Part shown: positions 20,264-54,289 of the stretch, one piece after another
Layout of the letters: each line of letters opens with the position of its first letter
Numbering within the stretch: position 1 is the first letter of the stretch
Assembly (NCBI GenBank): GCA_965178125.1
Contig: OZ237735.1
Location: 1,984,001-2,048,000, forward strand
Source: Bilabrum cf. latius
Lineage: Eukaryota
DNA length: 64,000 nt
Reading direction: 5' to 3'
The notes under the pieces: generated by a model
Databases searched by the model: none
Told to the model about the DNA's origin: nothing
The model's input: only the letters and a program-made list of their open reading frames with translations
Translations under genes and position numbers: made by a program

Positions 20264-22045
20264 ATGGACGGGATGAAAGGTGCCCCACTCAGCGTATTGT
20301 AGCTTGCTGCGCCAATTTGCGTTCATGGACCGCAAGCGAGGCAAGGTGGTACGGAGCGATCGAGAGGGTCAGACAGAACATCTCAACACAAAGAGGCTAC
20401 TCTAGAATCTTCTGCGGCTGATATTAGCAAAGAAACCCTTATTCGGGCCATGTTTCCACCAAGAGAATGGACAGATCCCGACGGAAACACCTGGCTCTCC
20501 TTTCCTAGCTCGGAGCTGCCAACAAGAGATTCAGCACTGCGCGCCCACGAACACCTTGAGAGGGAGCTCAAGAGGCGTCAGGCGAGGCCTGAACCTCTAG
20601 ATGACGTTCGCGAAGAGATATTTGCAGAGCTTTTCGATGAGCTTATTCGCTAGATCGCGCTGCTGAATCCTGAGAGGGGCTTGCTGCTCCTCAGAGTTCG
20701 AGACGAGAGAAGACTCACGCTTCTTTCCCTGTCTGCCCTGGCGCAAGGGGGCTCGCGGTTCGGAACGAACTCTGTAGTTCGAATTCGTTAGCGTGGTAAG
20801 CGTGCCATGGAAAGGATAGGCCTCCAGTAGGATCGGATCGGCCACGCTGACACAGCGGTCCTCGCGGCACTCGACAGCACGGCGGCTCCGGGTACTGACT
20901 TTGAGGCGAGTGGGGGTGAAATTGTACCGTTATCGTCCAAAGCATCGTCCAAAGCAAGCGAAATGAACGGGTAGGACGCCGCGGGCCGATTGAGCAGCAC
21001 CATCACCAGCGGCACAACCAAACCGGATCACAGGGGGCGAGGCGTCTTGCCCGCGAGGGCCGCACTCGTCACACGCCTGTGGCCGCACAACGACGCCATC
21101 ACACGAGCGGCGGCAGAAGCAACCGCTGTCGAGCGCTTCGGTGTGGAAGAGGCGGGCAGGCTGTTCGAGCTGGTGAGGCGAGCCGCCGCGACCGACGTGC
21201 TGGAGGGCACCGCAGCCGCTGCGATCGCCGGGTCGGCACGGGCGGCTGGATGGAGCGGCTCTGGCTAGGGCGATGACAACGATCTGGTCGTGCTGGAGAC
21301 ACCCGGAAAACTAGGTATTGGCGTCCGCGATTCGGAGTCGGGAAGGATGGAGGGTGTCGGACTCGCGGAGGGCAAGGACGACGAGTAGGTGGAGGTGGAG
21401 GGGGCGAGCACTGGTGCTCGGTCAGCCGGAGCAATTGCTTCGTCGCTCGCATCAGCACTCCCGGTGGATCCAGAGGAGGAAGACCTGTCGGGGAAAGTCG
21501 TGGCAGTGCAGCGTGACGTGGATTCTCTCCGCGCTCGCAAGGCGGAGCTGGAGTCTCTCATGCAAGCAGTCGGCGCCAGAGCCAGGGCGCGGCGATATGC
21601 TGCCGTGCGGGTGGCAGAGCAAGCAGAGGCAGAGGCTCAGGACGAGGCCGGGATCGGGATGGGGACTTCATCTGGGGGCGGCATTCTAGGCGGGGCTACT
21701 GCGGGGAGCAGCAGCAGGGCGCCGTCAGCGCTCGCCGCAGCGCTTCGCGCCTCGGACGGCCCGGGGGGTATGCACCCTGGCTCGAGGGCTGGTGAGGGCG
21801 CGGGGGGAGAAGGCGCGATCATGGAGCAGCAGCTGGCCCTGTAGCTGCAGCGACGGGCACAGAAAGCTAGGCTGGAGAGCTAGATTGAGGCATTGCGGAC
21901 GGTGCTGGGAAGGGCAGCGGCAGCTGCCGCGGCGGCCGGTGATGGTGACCAGTACAGCGACGACGGTTCCGACACTGGCCTCGACGTTGCGACTGGGCTT
22001 GGTCCGGAACCGAGCCTCGACAGTGCGGTCGGACTTGACCATTGA
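20264..22045 (+). CDS. Axonemal dynein light intermediate chain p28/DNALI1-like protein, extended (~593 aa); 9 in-frame TAG
   Basis: FPPREW..TR..HLERELKRRQAR..VREEIFAELFDELIR*IALLNPERGLLLLRVRDE matches the p28 core as I recall it (LPPREW..QQRQAR..CFDELIRQVTINCAERGLLLLRVRDE). The frame runs from ATG 20264 to TGA 22043-22045 through TAGs only. Confidence 0.85.
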
Positions 22046-22204
22046 GATACATTTGTTCTCCAAACGTGGCATTTTGGGACTATAATTGCGTTTTGGGGTG
22101 GGATTTCTCGCATCCGGAATCCGGATGCACAAACGCCATCTCGGTGGCCAGTCACCCTCCAAATATCCTCTACAAGTGCAACTAGCATGCTACGCAGTCT
22201 ACTG

Positions 22205-25714: not shown

Positions 25715-25948
25715 CAGTTAGTTCACTTCAGTTAAATTATTAAACTGGGAGAATATTGCTTGGGTCTTGAAAGTCGTATAGAGTGTCTCAGTCGAATCGA
25801 GCCGTTGGCTGTGCTGCAGTTTTGCGACCAACTTGATGAACTTGAAACCGAACGACGGCCCCGGTGCCGCGGATGCAAGAAGAGCAATGCCACTCTGGCG
25901 GTTCGTACAGTGCTTGTGATTACAAACTTATCAAATATGTAGCACAAT

Positions 25949-28900
25949 TCACTGCGATTCCTTCAGGTAGGGATCATGGGACTTGATGAAGTCCTTGGTC
26001 TGCCTGTATAGGTCACCCTCCGGCACACTCGACAGGTCTAGTTCGTGCAAGCTGGCTTGCTTATCGTGCTTTGAGGACGGCGCATCAACGGGCGTGCTCG
26101 CAAGTCCTGGGTCCTACTTTCGCAGCGAGTGCCCCTGTGCCACCTGCGCGGAATCCATGGCGGATTTCTGCGCAGAGGCCGCCATGCGCATGGCGCCGGC
26201 GGTGAGGCGGGCCACCTGAGCCCTAGTCTGCTCTGCCTGCGCCTGCGATTGAGGGGTGGGAAGCACGTCCCCGTCGCCCTGAACACTGGAGGAAATCTTC
26301 GAGCCGAACCCATCACCGAGCTGCCCCAGCTCCGGAGCTCTCTGGCGGGACGCTCCCGACTGAAGGAGGAGGGCAGTTGCCCTCGACAGTGCAGTGCCAG
26401 TCGCAGTGCTAGCTCCTTCAGCCAATTGGCTCCTGCTCCTGCCCGACTCCGAGAGGGCCATTGCAAGCTGGCCCGCCACGTCTGCATCCACCAACACCTG
26501 GCTCCTCGCCTCTGCCTCCGCCTCCGCCTCATCTACCTCGGCTTGGCTCGCGCCTGCCACCGGCACGTCAACACCCTCCGCATGCAGGTCCAGGAAGGAC
26601 TGCACGCCCGGGATGCCGCCTGGTGGACCGCTACGAGGTACCTTGAGGATCGCGCCGCTGGCCACGCCGGCCTCGATGGCGTCTGCCAAGGACTGCTCCT
26701 GCTCCTGCTCCTACTCCTGGCTCGAGTCGGTCTGCAGCAGCGAGCTCGACTGGGGGAAACCGACCCAGTGCCCCCAGTTGCGGTACAAACCGCGAGTACG
26801 GCTCGACAACAGGTAGCACCAGTGATGGTGGCTCCACACGGACGCCTTGCAGCGGCTATCTCTCTCGCACGCCTGGCAGCAATCCACGGCAGACTACGTC
26901 CTAAGCGTCTTGAAGTGGTGGCCCCAGGTCCACCTGAACTGCCGAATGATGCAAGACTTGTACTTGGTGGCCTTGGCGGCATTCCGAGCGGTCTCGGCGG
27001 CCTGCCTCTCCGTCTTGGCGCGGGCTGCCTGCTGGACGGCATCGTTTCGCATCGCGGTAGCGTGCTGCGCATTCTTCTGCACGTTGCTATGGGCGGTCTT
27101 GGCCTTATTGGCCTCGCTCGTTGCACCCGAATGGGCGGTGGCGCTCTCGGAGGCCGCCGATGTTGCGGCCTTCAGCGCTGTTTCGGCGCGGGCCTGCTGC
27201 TCGGCGGCCTTGCCGGCCTGTTCCTTGGCCGTGCCAGCGTGCTGCTCTGCGTTGGTCTGCATCTTTGCCGCAGCGTCCTGGCCCTGGCCTGCCGTGGCAG
27301 CCGCAGACACTGCCTTGTCCGACTGAGCCTTGGCTGCGGCCGCTTGCTCGGTGGCGTGCTAGCCAGCTTCGGTGATGCGCTTGGCCGTGTCCTTGGCCTT
27401 GCCCACCGCACCCGCGACCGCCTTGCTGCTCGTCTCGGCCCCGCTCGCCGCCGCCTGGGCCGCCTTGAGCTTGGCAGACACCGAGTCGTGCGCCTTGCTG
27501 GCGGATGCCTCCGCAGAAGCAGCCTTCTTGGCGTGAGTGTCGGCACTGTTCTCTGAAGCACCGGCTGCATCGGCGCTGGCCTTGCCCTTGGCGGCATGGC
27601 TCGAAGCAGCGACCTTGGCGGCCTTTGCAGCCTTTGCCATGTCGCCCGATGCGGCGGCGGCCTTGCCGGCCGCCTCCTCCAGGCCAGCAGAGGCCGTGGC
27701 CTGGGCCTCGCTCACGCGCTTGTCCCGGGCCGCGTTCTCGGCGTGCTTGGCGGCAGCAGCCGACTCGCTCGAGGCAGACTCAGCCGAGCCAGCGGCTGCA
27801 GCCATGCTGCCTGCCGCGGCCTGCGCATTGCTTGCGGTCGTCTGGCGGCTCTCCTTGGTCGCCGCCGCGAGCTGCTCGGCTGACTTGGCGGCCTCGCTCG
27901 CGCGGCCTGCCTCGGCGTCAATGCGCGCGTGCTTGGCCTTCATCTGCTTCTCGATGTCCTTGGCGTCGCTGAGGGCAGACTCGGCGCCCTCGCGGTGTCC
28001 GAGCGTGGTCTCTGTATGCTTCTTGGCCAGCTCCTGCTGCGCCTTCGCGTCGGCCGCTGCCCTGTCAGCGCCCTTCTTGGCCCGAGCAGAGTCCTTGGAG
28101 GCCTCGAGAGCATCCTCGGCCTCCGTGTCGGCGCGCTCGGCCAGGCTCTGCGCCCGCTTCATGGCCTTCGCAGAGGCATCCATGGCTTCCTAGGACGTGG
28201 TGGAGTGGTCCTCCGCCTTATTCTCCGCCTCGTCTGCTGCCGCGCGGCTCGCCTTTGCGGCTACGCTCGACGCCGAGGCGTCCTCGAGGTGCTCCTCGGC
28301 GGCGGCGGCGGCCTCCGCGGCGTCGCTGCGCATTTCGGCGCTCGTCTTGGCGCTGGTGTTCGCGCTCAGCTCACTGTTGGCTGCCTCGGTGCGGGAGACG
28401 TTAGCGTTGCTGGCGTGCTCGCCCGTCAGCTCCTCCATCTTTTCGGCGCGGTCGGCGTGCTCCTTGGAGGCGGAGGCGGCGGCCAGCGTTGCATTCCTGT
28501 GAGCAAAGGTGGTCTGGCTGGAGGTGAGGCTCTCCGTCGCCTCCTTCTCTGCATCGTCCGCGTGCGAGCGTGCCACGGTGACCGCGTGCTTCGCCGTCTT
28601 CTCGCTCTCCTTGGACTCGAATTCCGCGCCCTCTGCCCTGCCTGCGTGCCTCGCAGCCTCGTTGGACTGCTCGAATGCCTCCTCGGCCTCGTCCTGAGCG
28701 GCCTGCGAGCTGCTCTTGGCGTGGTCCGCGTGCTCCACGCTGATCTGGGCGCTCATCTCAGCAGAGTGCGCGTGGATCTTAGCTTTGGTTGCCATCTCGG
28801 TCGCAGTGTTGCTCCGTTCAGCAGACTTGGCGTCGTTGGCAGCTGCCTGCCCCTCAAGCTTCTTTGCCGCAGCTTCCGATGCTTCCGTTGCGATGCGCGC

Positions 28901-31900
28901 TGCGGTGGCGTTGCGAGCGAACTTGGCCGCGCTTACCTCGTGCTTGATTGTCTCCTTGACCGAAGCAGTGGCGTTGCTAGACTGACCCGCCGCGCGTTCC
29001 TCCTGCTCCGCCGCGATGTCGGTCTCCTTCTTGGCCAAGTCGCGCTCGGCCACAGCCGCGGCTAGCTGGGTTGCCGTGCGGTTCTGCTGCTGGGTGGCGT
29101 CCTGGCTAAAGTCCTTGGCTTCCCCGGCCGCCTGGTTGGCGTGCTCCGCAGCCTCCTGCGCTGACCGCCGCGCGCTCTCGGTGAGGTTCGAGGTCTTGGC
29201 CATCTCGACGGCTGACTCCGCGGCCTTCCTGGCGGCATCCTCGGCCTGCTCCACGCGCTCTGCAGTGGCGTTGAGGGCCAGCTCCGCGTCTGCGCGAGAT
29301 ACGGCGGTTAGGTTCGACGCCTTCATTGCGCGCTGCGCCGCTGCAGACGCCACCTTGGCAGCCTGGATGGCACGGTTAGCGGCATCCATCGCGATCTGGT
29401 CATCGCCACTCAGGCCCGAGGCTTCCTGTTCCTAGGGCTTGCGCTCCAGCGGGACCGGAACCACGACGACGTCGTCGCCGCTGCTGCTGCTACCATCAGA
29501 GGCCGGGGCAGCTGCCTGCTGGCTTGCTGGGGCATTTACGGCCTGTGCGCTTGCTGGCTCTAGCACAGCCTCGGCTTGCGTGGGCGCTGCCGGCATGGCA
29601 GGAACAGCCGGTGCCAAGGGTGGCGTTGCAGGCTCCTGCCGACTGCCACGCAATCTGCGAGCCCGAGACCGAGCTGCAACACCCTTAGAGCTGCCAGCCG
29701 ATTGCAGGAGAGCAGCACTTGTGTGGTGGCCGTGAATGGCAGTAGAGATACCGGCGGGACCAGTCGAAACCACCACGGTGCCCCCATGTGACGTCTGCAC
29801 CGAGGGCTGAGACACGACCATGGGAGCGGCCGCTGCTGCATTCTTGGTGGCCTTCGCGGGGTACCTCCAGCCGGTAGAGGACGAAAGCGACGGCGAGCGG
29901 GTGACCGGGGTTGCGACAGCTGCTGCTGGCTCATCCGACGGGACGTCTGCAGGGACGCCCACCTCCACAACGTGCTATGTGGTCACAGATGGTGGTCCAA
30001 AATTCGCGGGGCCCACGGGCAGGGCACTCGCACTGGATGGCCCAGCGCCAGCTGGCACAGCATTGGGCGCTGCACCCACGGTGACACGGTAGTATGAGTG
30101 CCTGGCGGCATCCCCGCCATCCAAACCATCGAATAGGCCAGCACCGCCTCCGACGCTGCCACCGAAACCGCCATTGAATTGGGCCGCGCCGCAGGCTGCC
30201 TCAATCGAATCGAGCTGGGCTCGCGAGCGCTCAAGCACCGACTGCGCCCGGCGCACCACTGCCTCCCGCTCTCGCAAGCGGCGGAACGCACCCGCAGCCG
30301 CATCGGGGCGGACTGGGCCTGCTGCTGCGCTGCCCAGAGAAGACTGCGCCTGCCGCTGGGCCGCCGCCTCCGCCACTACCGCAAGCGACATAGCATGCTC
30401 GGCTGCTACCACGGCCGCCTGCGAGCGGGCCAGCCGCGCCTCGCAGTTGGCAGAGGACAGCTGCTCGGGGGCCTGCTGCATGCAGCCCTGCGAGGGAGCA
30501 GCGCCGACGCACTTGGCCATGGGAAGGGGCTTGAAGGCAGGCATGCCACCCTGCATGGCCAGGTCCAGCTCCGCCGCCTGGGTCATACCCGCTGCGCCTG
30601 GCATTCCACCCAGCTGCATCAGCATGGAAGCCTCCACGCCATCCAGCGGGGACTCGCCCTTGACGGACTAGATGGGCTCGGCCAGTGCCCCGCCCAGCTT
30701 CTCCTCGAGCTTCTTCTGCGCATGCCCGGCGGACTTGCTCAGCTCGGGGGACCCCTTGGCGGCGTCGATCATGTCCTTCGCACCGGCCTCGCCGCCACCG
30801 CCCACAGCTGCCGCGGCCTGCTTCTCGGCCTCCACCGTCATGCGCTCGTCCTCCTCGCGGTCCTCCTCGGCCGTGGCCTTGGCACCCTCTGCCGCAGCCA
30901 CAGCGCGGTCGTGCAACCGCTTCAGCACACCCTCGGCGCTGCCTGCCACGCTCAAGCTGTGCTGCAGCTGCTGACGGAGCACCTCCTCATTCTGGGCATC
31001 CTGCGCGCTCTGCTGGCTGTCGTTCACGCACTCGGGCTCCAGCTTCACCTCGCCGGACTCCTCGCTCGCAAGGGCCTCCTTGGCGTCGCACACCTGCTTG
31101 CTCAGGGCCTCCACGGCCTCACGGGCCTGGTCCGCATGCGCCAGCGCCTTGACCACCACGGCTGCAGCCTTCTCGGCGTCTGCGTGGCGCTACTCCTCCT
31201 CCACGGATGCAGCGCGCACCTTGGCATCGGCGGTCTGCACAGCCTGCTTGGGACCCTCCAGCGACACAGTGCCACTGGAAGCGCTCGCGGCGGCGTGCTG
31301 CGCCTGCTGCTCGGCATCCGTCAGGCATTGCTGCGCAGAGTTGAGCTCTGCGTCCGCCGCTCGCCTCTGCTTACTGGCCTCCTGCGCGGCTGCCTGCGCC
31401 TTAGAGCTGGCCTCCCTGGCTCCTGCCAGCGTGGCAGTGGCCTGGTTGGACTCGGACTTGGCGTGCGACAGACGGGCCTGGGCCAGAGCCAGCAGTGCCT
31501 CGTGCAGACCGGCGGTGGCGTCCTGCAGCTTCTTCACGGCGTCCTGCCGCTTCTACTCTGCGGCCTCCAGCTCGGCCACCACGGCCACGCCGCCCTCCCT
31601 GGCCTTCTGCAGGTCGGCCAGCGAGTCGTCGATGCGACCCGCGTGCGAGGTCCACGTGGCCAGCTGCTGCCTAGTGGGCGCCGCCTTCTCCTCGGAGAGA
31701 GCGTCCGCGCTGGGAGTGTCTTCCAGATCGAGGGCCATGCGAGCCGTCTCCACGGCCGACTCGGCGCGCCTGCCGCTGGTCCTCAGCTCACGGGCCGTGC
31801 CACGCACCTTGGGGAACACAGAGCTCACCTCCTGGGCAGCTGCCTTCAGCTCTTCCTTGCCGTCGGCATACTCCTGCTGCTTGCTGCGCACCTTGGCTTC

Positions 31901-37336: not shown

Positions 37337-38805
37337 TCAGCTCAAGGCTCCAAACCCACCAATCATGCCACAAAACTCCGGATCAACAAGAGCTTTGTAT
37401 TCAATCGCACGATCGATGCTAAATGAAAAGGCATCTCCACCACATCCACATCCTGAGTCTGCCACGAAGTCTCCAGAAGGCTCACTAGGTCGCTCGCTGG
37501 AGCCAGGCACCGCTCCGGGGTGCGTCATGATCTCAAGGAGCGGGGGCGGCACGCCGCGCCCAGCCCCTTCTTGCCGCTGTAGGAGCCTCTTGATAGCTGG
37601 TCTCGCACACATCATTACATTCTCTTTGGTAAGTTCCGGTCCCGACAGAGTGAAACCAACGAACGCATCGCAGCACCGGAAGCCCGCCGCTTCGAAGAGC
37701 GCGCGTGCACGCTTCGCTTGCTCTGATACCTCGACGTAGAAATCAGCCCGAGCTGGCTCGATGCCTAGAATTCTACCTGTCCGTTTGAGCCCAGAAATGC
37801 TCCTATCACCTAACCCAGATGCAGCTGACGCCATGCCAGACACCCCGTCCCGTTGCTCCTCGTAAGCCTCCACGACGTATTTTCCCTCCTCGGGCTCCAT
37901 CTCGGGGACTCGAATCGACACGTCCAGGCCGCTCGCCCGAAGAACAGCCCTAGTGTCTGCAGCAAGGGCGAGATCAGCAGCCGACAGCCTTGCCGAGTGC
38001 CCTTGCGCGCTGCCAATGCTTGCTCGCCCGCCAGCACCCATTGCTCTCCCGAACTAATCGGGCCACTTATAGGCTGCAGGGGTGCGTCTTGACTTGAGGT
38101 CTGTTGGATCGTCTGCTAAATTTGCAAGCTCCCGCTACAATTCAGAAACGACAGCTCGCTTTGCCTGCTTTGCCATTGCGATTAAGCAACCGAGCGACGC
38201 GACCGCCGACACCAGAGCGCGAGCAACACCGCTGGTGACATGTACATGCTGGTGCCCATCAATGTGAATTATATCATGACTATTTTTGTCGCTGTCACCG
38301 GCTGCCCTTCTGCTGCCTGTGCCACTACTATGACAAACGAACAGCAGTAGCTGCGCTCGGACCTCCCTGTCAAGGTCATCCTACATGATTTGACCATGCA
38401 TAAGCGCAGCTCTGAGCCCGATCTTACCACGAAAATGTCCATGCGTGCCTAATCGCTATGATGTGGGACACGGCGATGATTTCGATACCAATGAAGTTGA
38501 GCATCCCAGCACTGGGGTACCCTCTGATACATTCAAGTGAAGGTTGACCGGGATCTTGGCTCGACTACAGCGCAGAAACATATCATGCATAGATAACCCG
38601 TTCATCATTATTGAAGTTCTCGAAACACAACCATGCCTAGCGGCATAAATCTGCATGTGATAGGAACGGTATTCCGAATACCTAATTTGAATGGATTATG
38701 TTTCGTAAGAACCCAAAAATTGTTAGCCAAACTTACAATCGCGTCATCTCTCCATTTGGAATATCCTCCGTCATCTGCAGTGATGATTACTGACACATTT
38801 GCCAT
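37337..38805 (-). CDS. YDJC: YdjC/ChbG-family carbohydrate deacetylase; model complement(join(37337..38650,38737..38805)); 4 in-frame TAG
   Basis: Family motifs IITADDGG, SIMMNG, LHLNVSEG, EVRAQL, HIDGHQHVH, EIMTHPG and DRAIEYKAL, in order. Intron GTAAGT...ATGCAG. TAG at 38456, 38381, 38135 and 38054; TGA stop. Confidence 0.88.
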
Positions 38806-38952
38806 GAAAATGGAAACTGCTTGAAGTTGCACTTTGTCATTTTACAATCCGAATAGGCACGACAATCAAGAGATAAAAATAGATGCCCGGTTCCGTTTGA
38901 CTGCGCGGCGCCTACCAAAAGCCAGCGCGTTGGTACAAGCACTGTGACTGCC

Positions 38953-41900
38953 ATGCAAAGCGCGCGTGGGCGCTCCGTATCGCTAAATATATTGAATATA
39001 TTAGTATTGGCCACCGTGTTGATTGGTAAGAACTTTGATACAAGGTTTACCCAATGCGGCGCGGTTATGGCACCCGAGGCTCTGCGTCTCAAAGTCGCCC
39101 TCATTCTTTAAGTAATCTCTTCGTATGTCTCGCCGTGATACAAATTTGTTTATTGCAGGATTATGTGGGCACGGTATGCAAGGTGCTCAAGCAGACAGTG
39201 TAAAGGTATGACGCGTCTTTGCATGAAGACATATTCACTGTTGTATTTCGATCCACATTGGATCCCAAAACCAAATTCCCGTGGGTTTCTTCGCACACTA
39301 TTTCGCAGACAAATAGAGCCAGAAATTCCGTTCGCTTACGGGGGAAGCAGCAGCAATTACAGCCTGAGCAAAGCGCCGCGGGCGCACAAGCGCCCACAGG
39401 CGGCCAGCAGGTCCAGATGGGCGAGCTGCCAGCCGCGGTGCAGGCCAAGGTCAATTAGGCCGTGGAACACTTCAAAGCACAGCATGATAGCTCCAACGGG
39501 GGAGAACAGGCCCAGACCGCTGCGCCAGCTGCGCCTCAGGCTCCGGCACCCGCCGCAGCCGCTGCCCCTGCCCCTGCCCCTGCCCAGCCCGCGGCTCTCA
39601 AGCCCGCCCCGGCTGCAGCTGCTCCAGCCGTGGGAGCACCCAAGGCTCCAGCAGCTGCCCCTGCCCCAGCCCCTGCGAAGCCGGTGGCTGCTCCTGCTCT
39701 CCAGGCCGCCGCACCGGTTGCAACCAAGCAGCGCACCATGTCGGAGTGCCCCGACGGGCGGTGGGTGAGCAACCCAGACCTCTGCAGCAGCGGGAGCGCG
39801 CAGGCCTCTACACCTGCTTCTTCCCCTGTGTCGAGCGGCGTGGCCGTGGTGGGCGGTGAGATCCAGGGGCAGGCCTCGACTGCCACGGATGCAGAGGAGG
39901 CGCTGGAGCGGGCCCGAATCGCCTTGATGGGCGAAGGGGTCGACGGACTAGATGATGGATCCGCTGCCCCGATGGACGAAGGGGTCGATGGACTAGATGA
40001 TGGATCTGCTGCCCTGATGGGCGAAGGGGTCGATGGACTAGATGATGGATATGCTGAGTCCAGCGCCTATGGAGCTGCATCCTCTGGTGGTGAGGTGAGC
40101 GCGGTGGCTGAGGCTTACGCGAGCTGCGATGGAGGCGAGTCGGATGGGGGGGACTGCATCCACACGAGCACGCAGCACCACAGCGTGCAGGTGGGCAGTC
40201 CCACGGTGATAATCAACCTGAAGATGGACGGGCAGGGCGCTGTGTCCGAGGACAAGGGCGATGAGGAGGAGGGGGCCGAGGGTGCAGAGTCTGAGGAGGC
40301 AGCAGCCGGGGGCGAAGAGTAGGTGGAGGAGAGTGGAGAGGGCGAGGAGGCCCCTGGGGCTGCGCTGATGCAGCTGCGGTCCATGGCTCTAACACGTCTA
40401 CTCTCGGCTGCTGGCACTCAAAGCAGTGGTTCCATGTTGAGTGCTTTGGAAGCCGAGTTGCAAGACTTGGATGAGCCCACCGGTGAGGAGGACGCCCCGC
40501 TGTCGGAGGAGCCCTCTGCCCCTGCTGGCGAGGAGGACGCCCCGCTGTCGGAGGAGCCCTCTGCCCCTGCTGGTGAGGAGGACGCCCCGCTGTCGGAAGA
40601 ACCATCTGCTCTTGCTGGTGAGGAGGACGCCCCGCTGTCGGAAGAACCATCTGCTCTTGCTGGTGAGGAGGACGCCCCGCTGCCGGAAGAACCATCTGCT
40701 CTTGCTGGTGAGGAGGGCGCCCCTCCGTCGGAGGAACTATCTGAAGAGACCCAGGGCGAGCTGCCTCCCCCGGAGGCAGTGGGAGGGGACGAGCCCCCCA
40801 CTGAGGCCGACGGCGAAGTCGGAGAAGATGCTGGATCCAGCGCCGCCGACTCCAGCGATGCCGTCAAGGAGGTCGCCAAGGCGTAGGGCGAGGAGGACCT
40901 CGACGGTGTGCCCCTGCCCGAGCCCTCGGCCGAGGACAAGAAGAGCGGAGAGCCGCCTGCCGTGCCTGAGGAGGTCGAGAAGGAGTCCTTGGACGAGGCC
41001 ATCGAGGAGGAGGCAGAGGTCGCCAAGGTTCTCAAGAAGAAGGGCATTGACGTGCCCGTCCCTGTGAGCGCCCCGGCCCCTGGCGAGAAGGCCCCCAAGG
41101 TGGAGACCCCCAAGGACGCGGGGCCCATCACCAAGGAGGCAGAGAAGGAGCAGGCCAAGATCGAAGAGGCCGCGGAAGAGGTTTAGGAAGAGCTGGAAGA
41201 GAAGAAGGAAGAGACGGCGACGCCGTCCAAGGCCGAAGTAGCCCCAGCCCCCAAGGACTCTGGTGATGAGAAAGACGAGGAAGAACATGCCAAAGAGAAT
41301 CGTGTGGAGGAAGCTGAAGCTGACGAAGAGACAGAGGCCAAGGAGGAGCACAATGAGGAGTCGATTGAAGAGCCAAGCGTGGTGCAAGTGCTGCAGGACG
41401 CCCTCAAGGACGCCCGTCAGGAGCGCGACGAGGCCCAGGAGCAACTGCAGGACGTGCTGGACGAGCTCTGGAAGTCCCGCAAGCAGGTGCATGCTGCCAA
41501 GGAGGAGGGTTCCGAGGCCATGGACCTGGCCAAGAAGCAGCACCTGGCCAAGCTGCGCGAGGCCGTGAACAAGGCCATCGCCAAGGAGCGCGCTGTAGTT
41601 CGGGAGAAGGCCAATGAGCTGCAGGAGGCCGCGAAGGAGTCTGGAGATGATGAGGGCGACGTGGACGCTGGATCTGCGACCTCTGTGGAGGCGCTCCGTG
41701 ATGCCACCGCCAAGCTGCAGAAGCTGCAGGCGGCTCGCCAGAAGCTGGCCAAGGCCGATGGCGAGGACGTGCAGGAGGAGGAAGAAGACGGAAAGAGCGA
41801 GGATGCGGCTGCAGAGCACGTTGACAGCGCACTCAAGCTCGCCAAGGATGCAGCAGAGGGCGAGGAGGAAAAAGTCGACAAGGACGAAGAAGAAGAGGAA

Positions 41901-44900
41901 GCCAAGGCAAAGGATATCATCAGCTCTGGCTATGATGAGTCTGCGGAGAAGGAGAAGGCTGTCAGTGAGCGTGTGGATCGCGCCCTGGAGCTGGTCAAGA
42001 AGCTGCAGGAGCACGAGGACGGTACCGCCGAGGCCGCCATGCTCATGCAGGTCGGTGCCAGGCACAGCCGCCGGCTTGCAGCGCGCAAGCAGGCCGAGGA
42101 CGAGTCCATCGAGGAGCTGCTGGCCGAGACCGATGAAGTCGTAGGCAAGGACAAGGAGGAGCCTGCAAGCGAGTCGAACCAGGACTCGAACGAACTGGCC
42201 GATGAAGTGGAGCAGGCCTTGAGCGGTGCGAATAAGGAGGATGCTGCGCCCGATGCCAAGCCAGTCGCCGCCGCTTCTGCCTTGTCGACTTCGCCCCTCC
42301 GCCGTGTTGTGAGCACTGGGTTCGCGGGCGTTGGCGTGTCGACCGGTGCCTCTGAGCCTGACAGCGAGTCCAGCTCGTCTGCTGAGGAGGGTAAGATCAG
42401 CGAATAGGAGTCCAGCGAGAGCTTCGGTGTCCCCAGCACGTACGGCGAGACTGGCTCGCACTCGATCGAGGTGGCCCGCGGGCTGTGCCCCACCATGCAG
42501 AGCTGCGACGGGTGCGCCATCCTGCAGCAGTGCGCGTGGTGCAGCACGGGGCCGTCTGGCAGCTGCGTGGCCCGCGAAGACGCAGCATCGAGCGGATCGC
42601 TGTGCGTGGCTCGGTTTGGGGCTGAACACGATGTGGTTGCCCTGGTGTCCGGGTCGTCACCTGGTGTCAGCATCAACTCTTGCTCTGCCCTAGCCACAGC
42701 CAGTGAGCAGACACCCGTGGCTGAGTAGTCCGGCGAAGACTACGAGGCATCCTGCGATGGTGGCTAGTGCACAGAGGCGGGCACGGGCTCGCTGCAGAGC
42801 ACGATGGGATCCGATGTCGTCCTTGATCGATCGCACTTTCAGCCGAAGAGCGTGCTGGTGCTCGGCTCAGTCATGGAAGGCGGCGATGCTGTTGAAGACG
42901 AAGAAGGCGATGCGGTGGTTGGCGAGCCCGCTAAGGATGACGATGTTGCTCAGGATGACGATGTTGCTCAGGATGACGCGCCTGCTCAGGATGACGCGCC
43001 CGCTGAGGATGACGAGCCCGCCACAGCTGATTAGCAGACACCCGTGGCGGAGTAGTCCGGCAAAGACTACGAGGCATCCTGCGATGGTGGCTAGTGCACA
43101 GAGGCGGGCACGGGCTCGCTGCAGAGCACGATGGGATCCGATGTCGTCCTGGATCAATCGCACTTTCAGCCGAAGAGCGTGCTGGTGCTTCGGGTACATT
43201 CCGCTGAGAGCCCGAGACTTGGCTCCATCATGGAAGGCGGCGATGCTGTTGAAGACGAAGAAGACGATGCGGTGGTCGACGAGCCCGCTCAGGATGAAGA
43301 GCCCGCTGAGTTAGACTATGTCGCTGCAGGTGAGCATGAGGGCGAGAGCATCAGCCAGTACGACGAGTCAGAGCAGCAGACAGAGCGCATCTCGAGCGCC
43401 ATGCAGCAGGCCGAGGACATGCCCACGATCGACGAGGGCATGCACGGCCCCGTTGGTCCCGACGGCAGCGACGTTAAGGTGGTGATGGTGCCGTATGCCG
43501 TGCCGGTGCCCGTGCCCATGCCCATGCCACCGTCCGAGGAGGCCCCTGTGGAAGAGGAGGCCCCTGAATAGGAGGACATTGTGGAAGAGGAGGCCCCTGA
43601 AGAGTAGGATCCCATGGGTGGCAAGAGCCTCGAGCAGATGGTGGAGGAAGAGTCCGTGGCAGAGGCCGGCAACGCCATCCAGGACCAGGCTGACATGGAC
43701 ACTACAGAGGGCACGGAGATGGACATGGACGACGAGAGCCCGGACACTGAGGCGGCCATGGTGGCGAACGGCACCCTTGCGGAGGAGAACACCACCGCGA
43801 CTGAGGACTCTACTGTGGCTGAGGACCCCACTGTGGCTGAAGACCCCACCGCGACTGAGGACCCCACTGTGGGTGAGAACACCACCGCGACTGAGGACCC
43901 CACTGTGGGTGAGAACTCTACTGTTGCTGAGAAGTCTACTGTTGCTGAGGACTCTACTGTGGCTGAGGGTGCGGATGACGCCAAGTTCCGATCTGTGCGG
44001 TCGTCCGCGTCCTCCGGTGCTGCTAGCGCGATCGAGTCGGCCATGCACCGCGTGAGCAGCCTGCAGGACGGGGAGAGCGCCGAGAAGGTGGAGGAGGCGG
44101 CGGGTACTCTGGAGCGTCTGGAGTCCGGCGAGCCGCTGCCCTCGTCGGACAAGGACGGCGAGGAGGACACGGAGCAAGAGTAGGCCGAGAGCGACTCCGC
44201 CGAGGCAAGCGAGGACGTGACGCCGCTAGAGGCTGTGCGCCGGGCAGAAGCCACGGTGCGCAGCAAGCAGCAGGAGTATGCCGACGGCAAGGAAGAGTTG
44301 AAGGCAGCTGCCCAGGAGGTGAGCTCTGTGTTCCCCAAGGTGCGTGGCACGGCCCGTGAGCTGAGGACCAGTGGCAGGCGCGCCGAGTCGGCCGTGGAGA
44401 CGGCCCGCATGGCCCTCGATCTGGAAGACACCCCCAGCGCAGACGCTCTCTCCGAGGAGAAGGCGGCGCCCTCAAGACAGCAGCTGGCCACGTGGACCTC
44501 GCACGCGGGTCGCATCGACGACTCGCTGGCCGACCTGCAGAAGGCCAGGGAGGGCGGCGTGGCCGTGGTGGCTGAGCTGGAGGCCGCAGAGGAGAAGCGG
44601 CAGGACGCCGTGAAGAAGCTGCAGGACGCTACCGCCGGCCTGCACGAGGCACTGCTGGCTCTGGCCCAGGCCCGTCTGTCGCACGCCAAGTCCGAGTCCA
44701 GCCAGGCCACTGCCACGCTGGCGGGGGCCAGAGAGGCCAGCTCCAAGGCGCAGGCAGCCGCGCAGGAGGCCAGCAAGCAGAGGCGAGCGGCGGACGCAGA
44801 GCTCAACTCTGCGTAGCAATGCCTGATGGATGCCGAGCAGCAGGCGCAGCACGCCGCCGCGAGCGCTTCCAGTGGCACTGTGTCGCTGGAGGGTCCCAAG

Positions 44901-47900
44901 CAGGCTGTGCAGACCGCCGATGCCAAGGTGCGCGCTGCATCCGTGGAGGAGGAGTAGCGCCACGCAGACGCCGAGAAGGCTGCAGCCGTGGTGGTCAAGG
45001 CGCTGGCGCATGCGGACCAGGCCCGTGAGGCCGTGGAGGCCCTGAGCAAGCAGGTGTGCGACGCCAAGGAGGCCCTTGCGAGCGAGGAGTCCGGCGAGGT
45101 GAAGCTGGAGCCCGAGTGCGTGAACGACAGCCAGCAGAGCGCGCAGGATGCCCAGAATGAGGAGGTGCTCCGTCAGCAGCTGCAGCACAGCTTGAGCGTG
45201 GCAGGCAGCGCCGAGGGTGTGCTGAAGCGGCTTCACGACCGCGCTGTGGCTGCAGCAGAGGGTGCCAAGGCCACGGCCGAGGAGGACCGCGAGGAGGACG
45301 AGCGCATGACGGTGGAGGCCGAGAAGCAGGCCGCGGCAGCTGTGGGCGGTGGCGGCGAGGCCGGTGCGAAGGACATGATCGACGCCGCCAAGGGGTCCCC
45401 CGAGCTGAGCAAGTCCGCCGGGCATGCACAGAAGAAGCTCGAGGAGAAGCTGGGCGAGGCAGTTGCCGAGCCCATCTAGTCCGTCAAGGGCGAGTCCCCG
45501 CTGGATGGCGTGGAGGCTTCCATGCTGATGCAGCTGGGTGGAATGCCAGGCGCAGCGGGTATGACCCAGGCGGCGGAGCTGGACCTGGCCATGCAGGGCG
45601 GCATGCCTGCCTTCAAGCCCCTTCCCATGGCCAAGTGCGTCGGCGCTGTTCCCTCGCAGGGCTGCATGCAGCAGGCCCCCGAGCAGCTGTCCTCTGCCAA
45701 CTGCGAGGCGCGGCTGGCCCGCTCGCAGGCGGCCGTGGTGGCAGCCGAGCATGCTATGTCGCTTGCAGTGGTGGCGGAGGCGGCGGCCCAGCGGCAGGCG
45801 CAGTCTTCTCTGGGGAGCGCGGCAGCAGGCCCCGTCCGCCCCGATGCGGCTGCGGGTGCGTTCCGTCGCTTGCGAGAGCGGGAGGCGGTGGTGCGCCGGG
45901 CGCAGTCGGTGCTCGACCGCACGCACTCGAAGCTTGATTCGATTGAGGCAGCCTGCGGGGCTGCTTCATTTGGGGGAAACGCTGGCTTGTTCGATGGTTT
46001 GGATGGTGGTGATGCCGCCGGACACTCGTTCTACCGCATTGACGTCGGGTCTACCCCGGCGCAAGCAGCAGCCTCCGCTCCGAGTACCCCGTGGGGTGTA
46101 CCGACGGCCGGCGCGGGTCAGCACGGCATCATCGTGTCGACCGGAAGCGGTGGCATCACTGCAACCATCGGGAGCCAGCAGACCTCAGTGGCTCTGCTTC
46201 AGGCCGCCGGTAAGTCCAAGACGGTTGCGTCTCGATCGCGCTCCCGTAGGCTGCGAGGTGGCGCGTCAGCGGAGCCAGCTGCGGACACTACTTCTGTCGG
46301 TGACGTCGTTGTAGTGCCGATGCCGCTTGACAAGAAGGGGGAGACGCCTGTCAAGGCCCACTCAATCGCCTTGGAAGCGGCACGCCGAGCAATCGAGGCG
46401 GCCAAGGTTGCCGAGGCTGCTGCAATCCAGGCTCTCCAGGCATCCAATATGACCTTGAATCAGCGCAAGGAGGCCGAGGCAGCCCTCAATGCCACTGCCG
46501 AGCACGTTGAGGAAGCTGAGGCTGCGGCGGCCGAGGCAGCCGGGGCGGCTGTTGCCGTTGCGGCGACAGCCAATTTGACGATTCACGCACGGGCTGAGGC
46601 CAAGGCAGCCGCTGCTGACGCGGCGGAAGCATCGAGTCGCTCCAGGCACTCCGCATTTGACGCTGTGCGAGGTCAGGGCACTTCCGTGCGGCGTGAGAAG
46701 GAGGCCGCAGCAATGCGGGACGAGGCGGAGCGGCTCGCAGGGCTCGCCGGCAAGCATGCGCAGGCCGCCTTCGACCACGCTAAGAACGCAACCAAGGCGC
46801 TCCAGCTCGCCGGCAAGCATGAAATGACGGCTTCCAAGCACGCGCGCAACGCCACTGCTGCTCGCACTGCCGCTGAGGAGGCCGAGAATGCTGCTCGCGA
46901 TCACGCGCAACAGGCGATGCACCACGCAGAAAAGGCCAAGGAGCATAGCGACAAGGCCACTGAGATGGCTCAGCAGGCCGCCGAGCACGCCAAGTCGACA
47001 AATACGTTCGCTAAACAGAGCGAAGACCACGCTCTGACTGCGCAGAGCAGCTTGGAATCGGCTCGTTCCGATGCTGATGAGGCTGCGGAGCAGGCCACAG
47101 AGGCCAAGCGGCACGAGGGGCGGGCCCAGAGCTCGAGTCACGATGCCAAGGAGAGCGAGAAGACTGCGGCCCACGCCGTCACTGTAGCTCGCAAGCACGC
47201 GGAAGAGTCTGAGCAGCAGGCCGCCGAGAGCATCGCCTCGAGCAAGGAAGCAGCTGGGCACAGGAACGTAACCGAGAGCGCTGGTGCCGACACGAAGGAA
47301 CAGGCGAAGCGAGCAGCCGAGCTCGAGGACCAGGCAAAGGAACACGCCCGTACGGCCAACGTGTCTCGCGTGAGCGCCGGCATCAGTGCGTCGAATGCCA
47401 ACGCCAGCGCCACTGCGAGCGAGGAGCATAAGGACAACGCCGTGGATGCTGCCGAGAACGCCAAGTCCCACCACGAGAACGCAGTGGAAGCGAGCAAGAC
47501 TGCCTAGGCAAACCGATTGGCCGCAGCGAAGGCCGAATCGGACACCAAGGCCCACGCAGCTCGTGCCGAGGATGCCCTCGAAGCTGCCCGCGAGTCTGAG
47601 AAGACTGCCAAGGAGATGGCAGCCAGGGCCGAGGACGAGTCGGCGGGAGCGGCAGAATCCGCCAAGCTCTCTGCTAGCGCTCGAGCCAGCGCTGAGGCAG
47701 CCGCTGAATCCGCCGACCAGCACCGCGTCATTTCGATTGGCCACTCCGAGAACGCCGAGAAGCACAGGCAAGAGACGGCCGCCGCCCTGGAGGAGTCAAA
47801 CCGCGCCAAGGAGCGCCTCCATGCCAAGTCTGTGCAGATCAACGAGGCCACCGACCAAGCAGAGAAGGCAGCGGTGGCTGCCAAGGAACAGGAAGAGGTC

Positions 47901-49643
47901 TCCCAGGCGGAACGAATGGCTGCTGCCAAGCGAGCGGAGGAGGCGGCATCTCGCGCTGCGAATGCGGAGGGCTCCGCCAAAGCCGCTGGATCCGATGCCG
48001 AGGCAGCCGAGGGCCACGCCACCACTGCGGAGGCAGACCGCAAGGTCGCCGAGGCCCAGGCGAAGGCCATCGCCGGGCTCGAGTCGGCGACGAAGCAGCA
48101 CGCCGCCATGGCAGAGTCGCAGGCAGCTGCCGCGAAGAACGCGAGCACGACCGCGGGCATGGCCGCCGTAGCAGGCAAGGCCAGCGAAGACGAAGCAGCC
48201 AAGTCGCTCGCCAGCGCGAAAGAGAGTGCTACTGCAGCGGCCAATGCAAGATCGAAGGCAGAAGCTCTGCACAAGCAGGTCGACGGTAAGTTGGCCACTA
48301 CGTAGAGTCTGGCCAAGGCGTCTGCGGAGCATCAGGCGGCGATCAAGGCTGCGCTACCCACGGCACAGAGCACCGCTGACTTCATCGACGAGCACAGCAA
48401 GTCGTCCTCATCACAGGCAGCCCAGGCCAAGGCATCCGCTGAGAAGGCAAGCGAGGCCCAGAAACAGGCGGCATCGAACAAGGCCGAGGCTGACAAGATG
48501 GCCAATGCTGCAGAGGCTCACGCGCATGCCGCCAAGAAGCACGCAGACGCCGCCTCGGGCCACTCGACCCAGGCTGCCAAGGCCAAGGATGCTGCCCACG
48601 CGCAGCAGGTCAAGGCTGCGCAAGCCGTCGAGGGGGCGTAGCGTGAAGCGAACCGGGCGAACATCGAGAAGACGAGGGTCCACGGGAACCGTGATAACGT
48701 CCAGAACATGAAGAATCAGGCAGCTGCCGCGATCAAGCCAGCCGAGGCGGACAAGAACCTTGCAGTGAAGGCGCGCGACGCCGCCAAGATCGCAAAGTAC
48801 AAGCCATGCGTGATTCACCACCATCGCTGGAGCTGGGGCAACTACTACAAGCGGCGGCGGGCCGAGTCGCCCGAGGATTGCTGCCAGCAGTGCGAGCGCG
48901 ACAGCAGGTGCAAGCTGACAATTTGGAATCATCATCGCTATTGCTATTTCCTGACCAAGCGAACACGCGGGTTTCATTACAACTCGGCGCACACCGTCAA
49001 CGTTCCGCAGTCTAGCTCGCTCCTGCAGGTGGACTCGAGCCATGAACAATCCGTAGAAATGGCAATCGAGGCCGGCGTGGCCAGCGGCGCGATCCTCAAG
49101 GTACCTCGTAGCGGTCCACCAGGCGGCATCCCGGGCGCGCAGTCCTTCCTGGACCTGCATGCGGAGGGTGTTGACGTGCCGGTGGCAGGCGCGAGCCAAG
49201 CCGAGGTAGATGAGGCGGAGGCGGAGGCAGAGGCGAGGAGCCAGGTGTTGGTGGATGCAGACGTGGCGGGCCAGCTTGCAATGGCCCTCTCGGATTCGGG
49301 CAGGAGCAGGAGCATGTTGGCTGAAGAGGCTAGGGTTGCGATTGATAGGGCGTCATCTCGTGCCCTTGGTTTCTTGCAAGGATAGGCAGTTGCTGGACGA
49401 CTCGGTGCGTCGTCTGGCCAATCGAAGGCAACACCGTCTTCAAAGGCACTCTCTCGATAGAGTGCGGCTGAAGAGGCGTAGCTGGTGGAGGCAGTGAAGA
49501 CATAGCGAGAGCTGATGATGGGCAACATGCTGCCACCTGCCCCTCATGGGGCTATATATGAGGAGGCGAAGGCGTTCATCGAAGCGCATGACCCGTTGTT
49601 GCAAGGGATCGCTGAGCTGAACGCCAGGAAGGGTTTTGAATGA
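38953..49643 (+). CDS. Giant secreted acidic/Ala-rich coiled-coil protein, paralogue B (~3,484 aa); model join(38953..39025,39159..39205,39309..49643)
   Basis: One 10.3-kb frame broken only by about 23 TAGs; TGA at 49641-49643. The 73- and 47-nt leader exons have the same sizes and phases as paralogue A and encode the signal peptide MQSARGRSVSLNILNILVLATVLIGLC. Homology to A extends to the C-terminus (GAIYEEAKAFIEAHDP vs GDLYRQTKDFIKSHDP). Confidence 0.85.
40483..40745 (+). repeat. Coding minisatellite, ~6 x 45 bp (GEEDAPLSEEPSA[P/L]A)
   Basis: Direct repeats of GGTGAGGAGGACGCCCCGCTGTCGGA(G/A)GA... Absent from paralogue A. Confidence 0.92.
42700..43310 (+). repeat. Internal ~327-bp tandem duplication (mirrored at ~32860-33465)
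   Basis: QTPVAE*SG(E/K)DYEASCDGG*CTEAGTGSLQSTMGSDVVLD occurs twice in each paralogue. Confidence 0.88.
43785..43968 (+). repeat. Coding 18-bp tandem repeats, E(D/N/K)(S/P/T)T(V/A)(A/T/G) (mirrored at ~32180-32390)
   Basis: Units such as GAGGACTCTACTGTGGCT. Copy number and order differ between the paralogues. Confidence 0.88.
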
Positions 49644-49702
49644 TTTGTTTACATATTCAGATACTCCGTTAAATTTTTGCGTCGCACGACTTCAGTTGTG
49701 TC

Positions 49703-52700
49703 TCAAGGCCCAGGCTCTTCGTAGAAGCACACACAGCATGGAAAGTAGCGCTCACAAAGCGACACGTCTCGTCCAAGCTGAGGGGCAGGATCAAGGCTCC
49801 CCGACTTGTCTGGCTCGGCTGGTGGCTCCACATCCTCTCCATCACCACGCAAATCTGCAATCTCTCTTGCGATCCAATGCAGCGTGAACCCCCCAGCGTA
49901 CATGCCCTCCTCAGACACGCGTCTCACCCCGTAGTCAAGTCTTAGCACACCCCTGAACCGAGCAAGCTAGGCACTTTCCAGCCCCATGGCTGCCAGCCCG
50001 GCGTGCTGCGGGATCTTGCTCGGCACCACATCCAGTATCTTGGCCAAATCCCATTGGAGTAACTCCAGCAACACGGTCCCAGTAGCGGCCGCCCGCTGTT
50101 CAGGATTGTGTGGCGGTGGCCCGGCCTGGCTCGGCTTGGCAGCTGCACTGCCTGGCTGCTCACCTGCCCCTGACGACCCGGCCTAGCTTCCGCCACCGCT
50201 TCCGGCCCGCGCCCCTGGTTCACCACCAGAGGACTCCTCCACGAATGGGGCCGCAAACACGATCGCTTTCTTGGATCGGTGCCAGGGGCCATCGGCCTTA
50301 TTTTCTGCCAGGTCCCAAAGAGCCCTCCTGTTCCACGTGCGCGCGATCTTTCCGCTCGTTGTTTTGCGGACATGATGCTTTTTCAGCAGTAGCACGAGCT
50401 GTGGCTTTATGCCGTGCAAGTCCATGACGCTCGCGGCAATTTGCCCAGTTTTCTCGCGCAGAACTCGCACCTTCTCAGCCCTGTTCGACGGCAAGGCATC
50501 CCGCAGCTCTCCAACGATGACGAGCGCGTCGGGTTGCTCGGCCTCAAGAGCGGCAGCAGCTGATGCAGCTGATCCCAGACCGAGGGTCTCCAACGTCCCA
50601 CGGAGGACCCTAGTAGGAACAGCAAACGCAGCCGTGCAGCCTGGCCGCAGGTGCCCAGGCGTGCGCATGCCCCCCTCACCGACGATTGAGCCCACCGCCT
50701 CGGCAGCACCCTCCACATCCTGAGGGTAGTAGTTCTTGCCTCGCACGATGAGCATGTCCTTCATCCGCCCGGTGATGAACAGCTACCCACGTCGCATGAA
50801 TCCCAAGTCGCCGGTCCGCATCCACACCCTGTCTGGGTGGCTACCAAGGAGCGCATCACCCTCGGCGTCCTCGCCGTGTGCATCCTCGTCGTGCCTGTAG
50901 CTGTCGGCACGGCTTGCAGACGCCACGATGGCTGCACTTTCTCCATCGGCATCGGCTCCGCCTGCTCCTGCCCCCGAAGCAGGCCCCTACGCGTCTGTGC
51001 TGCCAACCATTTCAGCCAGCTGTTCTTGCGGAGTGTCCAACGGCGACCCGGCTTTGGCATGAAACGCAGATTTCGTCTTGGAATCGTCTCCCCAGTACCC
51101 TGCAGCCACGCTCGGGCTGGCAAGCCACAGCTCACCGATTCGCCCCGACTGCTCAGGTGCCGTTGCGCCCCCTTCTCCCCCTGATGCCACGGCAGCAGAT
51201 GCATCGCCCGCAGTCTCCTGGCGTCGGATGCGCTGCGGCTCCTTGATTTCTCCTCTCACCAAGTCTAGTGCCGCCGACGGCTCCGACGCAGCGCTGTTGC
51301 GGTCGAGCACTCTGCCAGACTTGGGATCGACGATGGCCATTGCAAACCCAAGGTCAGCGTTTCGCTCAATGTCACCGCAGCTGACGAGAACCTGCAAGGG
51401 CTCGCCGGACCCTTCGTCTTTGCCTGCCGACGCTTCGGTACCTGCTGCTCCTTCTGCTGATGATGAACCCGTTGCCGCATCAGTACCGCCGCTGCTCTAT
51501 GGCTGAGCCGGCTTCTCCATGCCGATTGTGGTTTCATCTGCTTGTACGGCCTCTTCAGCTGCGGTAGCCTGCACCCAATCGCCGAGGCTGCCATCGGCCC
51601 GCCTGTGCCTAAAGCCCTGAACAGCAGCTCGCTTGCCCTCTTGCAGGCTGGCTTGCGTGACCTTTGCACGCATACCCCCGCCATCACAGACGTACACTGT
51701 GGATTCAGCCATGCCAAAAGAGGGTTGCATCGCGATCGGTTGGAAGCCCAGGGGCTCAGCCACTGCGGAGAACGCATCCAAGGCATCTGCAGTGACGGGT
51801 TCAGCCGCATTCAGCGCAAACGCAAGCGAGTGCATGGAGATTAACGGATGGCCATCATCCTCTGGCAGCGCCTCGGCTGGGTGCGAAGGTCTCTGCGCCT
51901 GCCTGCGAAGCACTTGCTCCGCGGCCTTGGACCCTCCGCGCTCCGTGAATTTGCGAGCGGCCAGCAGGTACCCAAAGTTGGGGGACTGGACGTGCGTAGC
52001 GCGCGTCTGCGCAATCATGCGGATCCACAGCGGCGGGTCCCCCACGAATGAAAGAGGGGAGCAGTACACTCCGGACCCGCCGCAGTACATTGGACCGAGC
52101 GTGGATCCGATCAGCCCCATGTCGTGGTATTGGGGCAGCCACCCGGCGACACGGGTCTCCGGAGACGCGTTCATGGTGCGCATGATGCTCCCAAGGTTGT
52201 GCGAAAGTGACCCATGCGTGATCATCACCCCCTTAGGCTCCGAGGTGGAGCCTGACGTGAACTGCAAGAAAGCCACTTCGCTCGGTGCGAAATCCCTGGG
52301 CAGCTCAGCAATGTCCTTGCCACCTTGCAGCTTTTCTCCGGATGAAATCCAAGAATCTACCGAGATCCACTCAAGATCTGGCCATTCCATCCCAGTGGCC
52401 CCGTTTCCGAACACAGAAAGCAAGCTTGAAGCTGCTTGCTGCAACTCGGCAAGCCTCTTGGCACCGAGGTATGCAGAGTGCGAGAGAGCAATCGAGCACC
52501 CGCTTCTCCGCATTATTGAGCTGAAAGCAAGTAGCTGCTACTTCAGACGGCGGGGATCAGGCGGATACGCTGGAACAGCGATTAATCCGGCCTTGAGGCA
52601 TGCTACAAAAGTCACAATGAAATCCGGGCCGGGCAAGAACACGAGACCTACCCTATCGCCCCGTTTCGCCTTGCCGCTCTTCAAGATGTTGGTTGCAATG

Positions 52701-54256: not shown

Positions 54257-54289
54257 TGGCAGACTCGGCCATACATAGAATTACCATCT

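Follow-up and report, generated by a model that had tools for sequence, protein, structure and literature searches.

TAG very probably encodes glutamine, with TAA and TGA as stops, in a GC-rich stretch of eukaryotic DNA

Among eukaryotes that translate stop codons, peritrich ciliates read both UAR codons (UAA and UAG) as glutamate, and a code that we take to be of the NCBI table 6 type reads both as glutamine. The glutamine version is reported from many ciliates, from Ulvophyceae, hexamitids and oxymonads and from the aphelid Amoeboaphelidium protococcarum (PMC5304391, PMC11687900, PMC6299283). Also on record are a nuclear code with UAG as glutamine and UAA and UGA as stops in the fornicate Iotanema spirale (PMC5304391), UAG alone as glutamine in Protocruzia tuzeti and twice within the phyllopharyngean ciliates (PMC11687900), and UAG as leucine in Rhizaria sp. 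exLh, as serine in Scotinosphaera and, together with UAA as lysine, as glutamate in an uncultured ciliate (PMC11687900). Here we analyze a 64-kb stretch of contig OZ237735.1 (positions 1,984,001 to 2,048,000, forward strand), hereafter the window, numbered from its first letter, in which TAG codons lie inside long protein-coding genes. Comparison with related sequences indicates that TAG very probably stands for glutamine in this organism, the host, and that TAA and TGA are its stops, a table that we take to be NCBI table 15. The name "genetic code 15" is used in the abstract of PMC9523058.

Stop codons of the window compared with known codes

With all three stops active, the window (63% G+C) contains 38 open frames of at least 300 codons, comprising 17,628 codons. 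Reading through TAG raised this number to 60 frames (41,093 codons), far more than chance would give; reading through TAA instead changed it little (44 frames, 19,698 codons), and reading through TGA gave no coherent gene set in the 64 kb. Pfam searches placed typical eukaryotic proteins in the long frames, namely eIF4A, a GAF-GAF-PDE phosphodiesterase, a thrombospondin-repeat protein, a GAT-domain protein, a VPS9-domain protein, the axonemal dynein light chain p28, a YdjC-like protein, a short-chain dehydrogenase (SDR), a fatty-acyl-AMP-ligase-like (FAAL) enzyme with a carrier domain, a fibronectin-III-rich protein and two tandem eIF4A-like helicases. Introns are unnecessary for reading any of the long genes.

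Our counts started from 17 frames with 115 in-frame TAGs, and removal of one doubtful frame (12071-14452) left 16 genes with 110 TAGs in 18,443 codons and not a single in-frame TAA. Over as many as 3,697 codons, the frames that contain TAG have neither a TGA nor a TAA, and both Pfam domains and PDB alignments continue unbroken over the TAG positions. Fifteen of the 17 genes end in TGA and two in TAA: the eIF4A gene, whose frame closes with MPMNVGELI followed by TAA at 945..947 on the plus strand, and a nucleoside-phosphorylase-like gene (18789-19577) with its TAA at 18789..18791 on the minus strand. Given the use of CAA and CAG (128 and 643, a ratio of 0.2), about 22 in-frame TAA codons would be expected if TAA were also glutamine. 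Because none was found and two genes are closed by TAA, only TAG has been reassigned: TAG is a sense codon, and TAA is a stop and not a sense codon.

Read as glutamine, TAG would make up 110 of 881 glutamine codons (12%). The ratio TAG/(TAG+CAG) is 0.146, near the 0.181 of TTG/(TTG+CTG), as expected for the first-position T variant of a synonymous pair in a GC-rich genome. Re-reading of the sequence located every TAG feature named in an earlier note on this DNA, among them the TAGs (x) that adjoin glutamine codons in PLQxQA, LLQxLS, DLQxHG and LKxQL.

The arrangement is like that of Iotanema (PMC5304391) in that UAG alone changes meaning, becoming glutamine while UAA still terminates, and by the same reasoning a tRNA-Gln(CUA) is expected. 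Unlike Iotanema, an anaerobic metamonad known from its transcriptome, the host is represented by a genome of about 63% G+C with axonemal and FAAL genes, and its main stop is TGA, whereas UAA is the main stop in Iotanema (PMC5304391). The codon table is also the same as in the UAG-only codes that PMC11687900 gives for Protocruzia tuzeti and the phyllopharyngeans, but the window shows no ciliate features and consists of long multi-gene DNA of high G+C with genes on both strands. With the UAR codes the host shares the change from stop to glutamine; Amoeboaphelidium protococcarum is, moreover, an algal parasite, and a metagenome labelled as algae (run X9) holds a relative about 92% identical to the host. 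The absence of in-frame TAA and its use as a gene end set the host apart from these UAR codes. Finally, the codes with UAG as leucine, serine or glutamate share the uncoupling of UAG from UAA and differ in the amino acid, those three residues being rejected here by the orthologue tallies presented below.

TAG positions in close relatives

A metagenome scan with the host VPS9 protein, using peptide patterns with glutamine placed at the TAG positions, returned two contigs, L001 and L002, which are identical in their overlap and thus come from one organism, more distant than the 92% relative, whose VPS9 protein is 61% identical to that of the host; the 92% relative itself was not among the matches. 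Their frames carry 11 and 10 in-frame TAGs, respectively, and no TGA or TAA, so that, judged from these frames, a second organism is using TAG as a sense codon. The G+C content of L001 1-2682 and L002 1-1816 is 60%.

Aligned with the host VPS9 gene (14516-18175, plus strand), L001 and L002 gave 12 pairs involving TAG at a local identity of at least 0.5, in which the partner of TAG is CAA or CAG seven times, GAA once, and a glycine, serine, arginine or alanine codon once each. Host TAGs lie opposite CAA at 15668..15670 (local identity 0.67), opposite CAG at 15950..15952 within QGDLR-x-LRQDERD (0.86) and opposite CAA at 17420..17422 within RRLAQWW-x-MY (0.67), and in the reverse direction a host CAG in the VPS9 domain, at 16916..16918 within GYYLTTM-Q-CALHFVR, faces a TAG in L001 (0.95). 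Three more L001 TAGs face host CAA or CAG, at VPS9 residues 440, 444 and 494, and one faces a host serine within a conserved stretch. No position is TAG in both organisms among all 19 TAG-involving pairs, which fits free exchange among synonymous glutamine codons. The host gene also contains three consecutive in-frame TAGs (16370..16378), which would read as a short polyglutamine tract; L001 is too diverged to align there.

Protein fragments of other relatives gave a similar picture. A 363-residue fragment 59% identical to the thrombospondin-repeat protein (gene 5687-9121, plus strand), P0391, could be compared at four host TAGs: Q at TAG 6689..6691 (local identity 0.80), Q at TAG 6812 (0.33), A at TAG 6845 (0.43) and Q at TAG 7691 (0.57). 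Scans of genome contigs and of viral contigs with this host protein found no relative. Public protein collections also contain fragments of an organism very close to the host: the p28 fragment P0121 (98 residues, 86% identical) has Q opposite TAG 20651, and the helicase P0241 (94% identical) spans TAG 54882 and has Q there. We left uncounted the ends of two fragments, that of P0121 opposite host CAA 20744 and that of P0392 opposite a host valine, since they could reflect a contig end as well as a stop, whether TAG or another. P0392, a thrombospondin-repeat fragment of 127 residues that is 96% identical and lies on a 12.5-kb contig, ends at 8105-8107 (residue 807), where the host continues Val-Ile-Pro.

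As a control, we tallied partners in the L001 and P0391 alignments wherever the neighbouring positions reached 50% identity or more, counting both directions. At these reliable sites TAG is paired with Q nine times and with E, G, S, R and A once each (n = 14). In the same alignments glutamine codons (n = 69) are paired with Q in 46%, with TAG in 13% and with E in 6% of cases, and glutamate codons (n = 131) with E in 64% and with Q in 3%. TAG was therefore classed with the glutamine codons and not with the glutamate codons, because its partner profile matches that of CAG and CAA and is unlike that of GAG and GAA. Across the full set of 25 orthologue pairs, including those of low identity, a BLOSUM62-based log-likelihood (lnL) favoured Q at -56.6 over E at -69.7 and over the next residue, R, at -73.4; R, S and K lie 17-19 log units under Q, and Y and L lower still. 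The empirical version gave -22.1 for Q and -44.8 for E, and among the 25 partners leucine and serine each occur twice and tyrosine never. The earlier note had slightly favoured glutamine over glutamate, and these tallies bear out its preference with support far beyond "slightly".

Family columns, inverted paralogues and competing readings

Columns of broader families were read from alignments of 120 homologues each for p28 and FAAL and of 150 representatives for the helicases. The TAG at 20651..20653 in the p28 gene (20264-22045, plus strand), within DELIR-x, falls in a column with Q in 111 and E in 9 of 120 sequences, the Chlamydomonas chain having Q and vertebrate chains E, much as the earlier note had stated (usually DELIRQ, with E in some vertebrates). 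The TAG at 50783..50785 in the FAAL-like gene (49703-52894, minus strand), within G-x-LFITGR and corresponding to residue 704, falls in a column with E in 114 and Q in 6 of 120, again as the note had it (mostly GELFITGR, with Q occurring). Only Q or E occurs in these two columns and their preferences are opposite, so that broad family columns leave glutamine and glutamate undecided. Methodologically, the tie between the two residues in such columns was broken by relatives at 60-94% identity. A third column gave another picture: the TAG at 54882..54884 (minus strand) in the eIF4A-like DEAD-box helicase copy A (54360-56099), within GIAQF-x-VRV, is aligned with Y in 90, F in 21, H in 16 and Q in 1 of 150 sequences, and the tandem copy B (56840-58654) has a TAG at the same site, 57362..57364 (minus strand), in an identical context. 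These two minus-strand genes are tandem duplicates with a long N-terminal extension and one TAG each. We gave no weight to weakly conserved or ambiguously aligned positions (FAAL residues 51, 119 and 976; p28 columns 176 and 189). In PDB alignments, the TAG partners fall in variable columns and are L and R for the SDR and T for the PDE; no PDB match was found for the YdjC-like protein. Dominance of Glu, which the earlier note had held to speak against glutamine, or of Leu, Tyr or Lys, against both candidates, was not seen overall, the exceptions being the Glu-dominated FAAL column and the Tyr/Phe-dominated helicase column.

A large Ala/Glu-rich gene offered a further comparison within the window. 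Copy A (25949..37042, minus strand; E 11.5%, Q 5.4%) has 3,697 codons with 25 TAGs, and the inverted copy B (39219..49643, plus strand) has 3,474 codons with 23 TAGs. The copies flank the YdjC-like gene (37337-38656), and copy A has a weak, sub-threshold PAN-domain match. Their identity forms a mosaic, reaching 98-100% over approximately residues 180-2200 and falling to 30-50% across a large part of the C-terminal third, which suggests partial gene conversion between them.

The codon alignment of the two copies contains 29 TAG-involving pairs, of which 13 are TAG in both. In the other 16 the partner is CAG four times, GAG four times, AAG twice, and GAA, GGG, ACG, GCT, CGC and TCC once each, and the BLOSUM62-based likelihood of these is flat (lnL -37.5 for Q, -37.8 for E). 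The pairs that the earlier note had drawn from the copies are all present: TAG 44814/CAG 31331 and TAG 36842/CAG 39348; TAG 31553/GAG 44592, TAG 43605/GAG 32558 and TAG 26894/GAG 48864; TAG 44181/GAA 31964; and the internal-repeat pair TAG 43032/GAG 42705. The TAG at 26711..26713 (minus strand) in copy A does occupy a CAG slot of a (CAG GAG)n run (AGC CAG GAG TAG GAG CAG GAG CAG GAG CAG), as claimed. The data available to that note were indeed indecisive, the family columns being opposed and the paralogue likelihood nearly equal.

In the near-identical part (2,061 codon pairs) the copies differ by 50 synonymous and 45 non-synonymous changes, in keeping with the description of the protein as weakly constrained, and by four changes that involve TAG: against GAG twice, GAA once and CAG once. 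None of 323 pairs shows a CAG/GAG difference. Where GAG faces a different codon in this part, the change is non-synonymous in all 12 cases (D 5, G 3, TAG 2, K 1, V 1, with no synonymous GAA), so the two GAG/TAG differences can be taken as ordinary replacements of E by Q through a change of G to T. Fourfold sites differ by G/C in 1 of 776 and by G/T in 3 of 558 cases, and since the G/C rate is so low the lack of CAG/GAG differences fits it; CAG and TAG differ once in 113 pairs, comparable to CTG and TTG (1 of 75). In the diverged part, TAG is paired with Q three times, E twice and K twice among 12 partners, glutamine codons with Q in 24%, E in 14% and K in 11%, and glutamate codons with E in 42% and Q in 6.5%; on these counts the partners of TAG match the glutamine and not the glutamate profile. 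The idea that TAG is replaced unusually often between the paralogues (in 4 of 17 pairs) was considered and dropped, as other rare codons behave alike (TTG 4 of 12, CAA 2 of 8).

Several of these observations weigh against glutamine. They are the FAAL 704 column, the helicase column, the FAAL 119 column with its K or D (K in 71 of 120), the near-identical paralogue part, which taken alone leans slightly toward glutamate, and the five of 14 reliable orthologue sites at which the partner is not glutamine. The proteins of the relatives, moreover, are taken as their gene callers translated them, under whatever genetic code these applied, L001 and L002 alone having been read as DNA. The helicase and FAAL exceptions are softened because the closest helicase relative has Q and because five of the six Q-bearing FAAL homologues (ranks 2, 3, 7, 11, 24 and 114) are among the best 24 matches.

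A double meaning of TAG, either as glutamine and glutamate at once or as glutamine in most places and a gene end in certain contexts, appears highly unlikely. Both E and Q are present in the p28 and FAAL 704 columns, and the way the frames were defined would have passed over any TAG at the end of a gene; the one glutamate partner among the 14 is, however, no commoner than for ordinary glutamine codons, and all 17 frames reach a TGA or TAA, that of eIF4A closing at its TAA directly after MPMNVGELI.

A glutamate meaning of TAG, like that of UAR in the peritrich ciliates, we hold to be extremely unlikely. It would agree with the FAAL 704 column, with the TAG/GAG (four) and TAG/GAA (one) pairs of the paralogues and the internal-repeat pair, and with a rate of GAG/TAG differences in the near-identical part (2 of 239) that is close to the neutral G/T rate (3 of 558). 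Yet true glutamate codons keep glutamate far more often than the single reliable site in 14 at which TAG does, the likelihood of glutamate over the 25 orthologue pairs is 13 units below that of glutamine, both closest relatives (P0121 and P0241) carry Q, the p28 column is dominated by Q, and the TAG partners in the diverged paralogue part fit a glutamine profile.

Another residue, such as the Tyr, Leu, Ser or Lys of other reassigned UAG codes, is scarcely credible. The helicase column suggested tyrosine, and in the fibronectin-III (fn3) protein TAG 60367 follows a tyrosine (GSPY-x-FRL) where sister repeats, compared by eye and unaligned, have Y, F, H or A; the lysines at FAAL 119 and the L001 TAG opposite a host serine point to still other residues. 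Tyrosine was nevertheless ruled out by the Q of P0241, present at that very Y/F/H column in a relative 94% identical, and by the orthologue likelihood, which also places R, S, K and L far under Q, and the p28 and FAAL 704 columns hold nothing other than Q and E. Practically negligible, lastly, is the probability that the TAGs are real stops (in pseudogenes or through assembly errors) or are edited from UAG to CAG in the RNA, readings that nothing but the standard code itself favours, as 110 of them lie in frames otherwise so long open, with domains continuing over them, 13 are kept in both paralogues and an independent metagenome relative (L001/L002) has the same pattern, and as 22 of the 39 TAGs in 1334-21333 lie within contig pieces of run X7 that show no other letter there, which is a weak point against editing because X7 is only guessed to be RNA.

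Proposed origin of the code and host lineage

With TAG as glutamine, UAG would be read by a tRNA-Gln with the anticodon CUA, most simply a mutated copy of tRNA-Gln(CUG), which is one base away. This anticodon pairs with UAG and not with UAA, an argument found in PMC5304391, and CUA is the anticodon predicted here because UAA is not read. The release factor eRF1 would in turn have lost recognition of UAG and kept that of UAA and UGA (PMC5304391); for Iotanema, a T32G change is described among the eRF1 motifs GTS, NIKS and YxCxxxF (PMC5304391). ARAGORN and Rfam found no tRNA, and Pfam no eRF1 gene, in the 64-kb window. Being common to at least two related organisms, the code would predate their split.

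The code variant itself is already known and rare, and the lineage is different from the known ones and possibly unreported. A full-text literature search, lacking most subscription journals and supplements, found no report of nuclear UAG reassignment in stramenopiles or their subgroups; the sequencing runs that contain this DNA date from 2025, none of them listed as RNA, so a description of the code of the host lineage may already exist or be in preparation. We tentatively put forward, as a serious possibility, an unreported and independent origin of a UAG-only change to glutamine. The lineage would be one of flagellum-bearing, intron-poor eukaryotes of high G+C that belongs to neither ciliates nor metamonads, perhaps to heterotrophic stramenopiles, and at least three diverged organisms would share the code. 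The three meant are the host, the relative of about 92% identity in runs X9 and X10, whose use of TAG is assumed, and the L001/L002 organism of about 60% identity.

Shared by all three, the code would be a trait of a whole clade. For annotation, the host and its relatives need translation with TAG as glutamine, as the standard code breaks their genes up; public protein collections hold only fragments of the relatives (98 residues for P0121, 127 for P0392), and standard callers fragment such proteins. Cases in which UAG has changed while UAA stays a stop are few (PMC5304391, PMC11687900), and every new lineage is a test of the mechanistic separability of the two codons. From an assembled genome, in addition, the changes in tRNA-Gln(CUA) and eRF1 could be read directly, which was impossible for Iotanema, known from its transcriptome (PMC5304391).

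The window is best explained as nuclear DNA of a GC-rich, intron-poor eukaryote. Among named sequences, stramenopiles make up all the best matches to the FAAL-like protein, with Hondaea, Aphanomyces, diatoms, brown algae and a bicosoecid at 31-45% identity, and an Atlas search with eIF4A was of no help on taxonomy. Contig pieces of run X7 each map to one gene, without a difference or an internal joint. These pieces match the window exactly, and both their starts and their ends lie close to gene boundaries (2217-5417, 5586-9216 and 9301-11215), which gives them a transcript-like look, the RNA nature of X7 being only a guess. The relative in X9 and X10, about 92% identical across 1334-21333, differs from the host at 1,843 places in that stretch; one of its contigs, of 7,595 bases, has 632 differences.

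Some minor features of the window complete the description. The p28 protein has 593 residues, more than twice the usual 250 or so, with a long low-complexity C-terminal extension after its conserved domain (residues 58-184). The doubtful frame at 12071-14452 is Ser/Gly-rich and without a Pfam match, and inside it lies a CAG/GCA-type simple repeat (13064-13103) where the depth is very high (>1,700 in runs X7 and X10) and unrelated contigs contribute many joints and loose ends. Long frames on the strand opposite the helicases (54210-55850 and 56702-58330) have no Pfam match and resemble the antisense artefacts of GC-rich DNA. Five plus-strand frames within 1334-22045, starting at 1334, 5687, 12071, 14516 and 20264, share one common reading frame, probably by chance (about 1 in 81).

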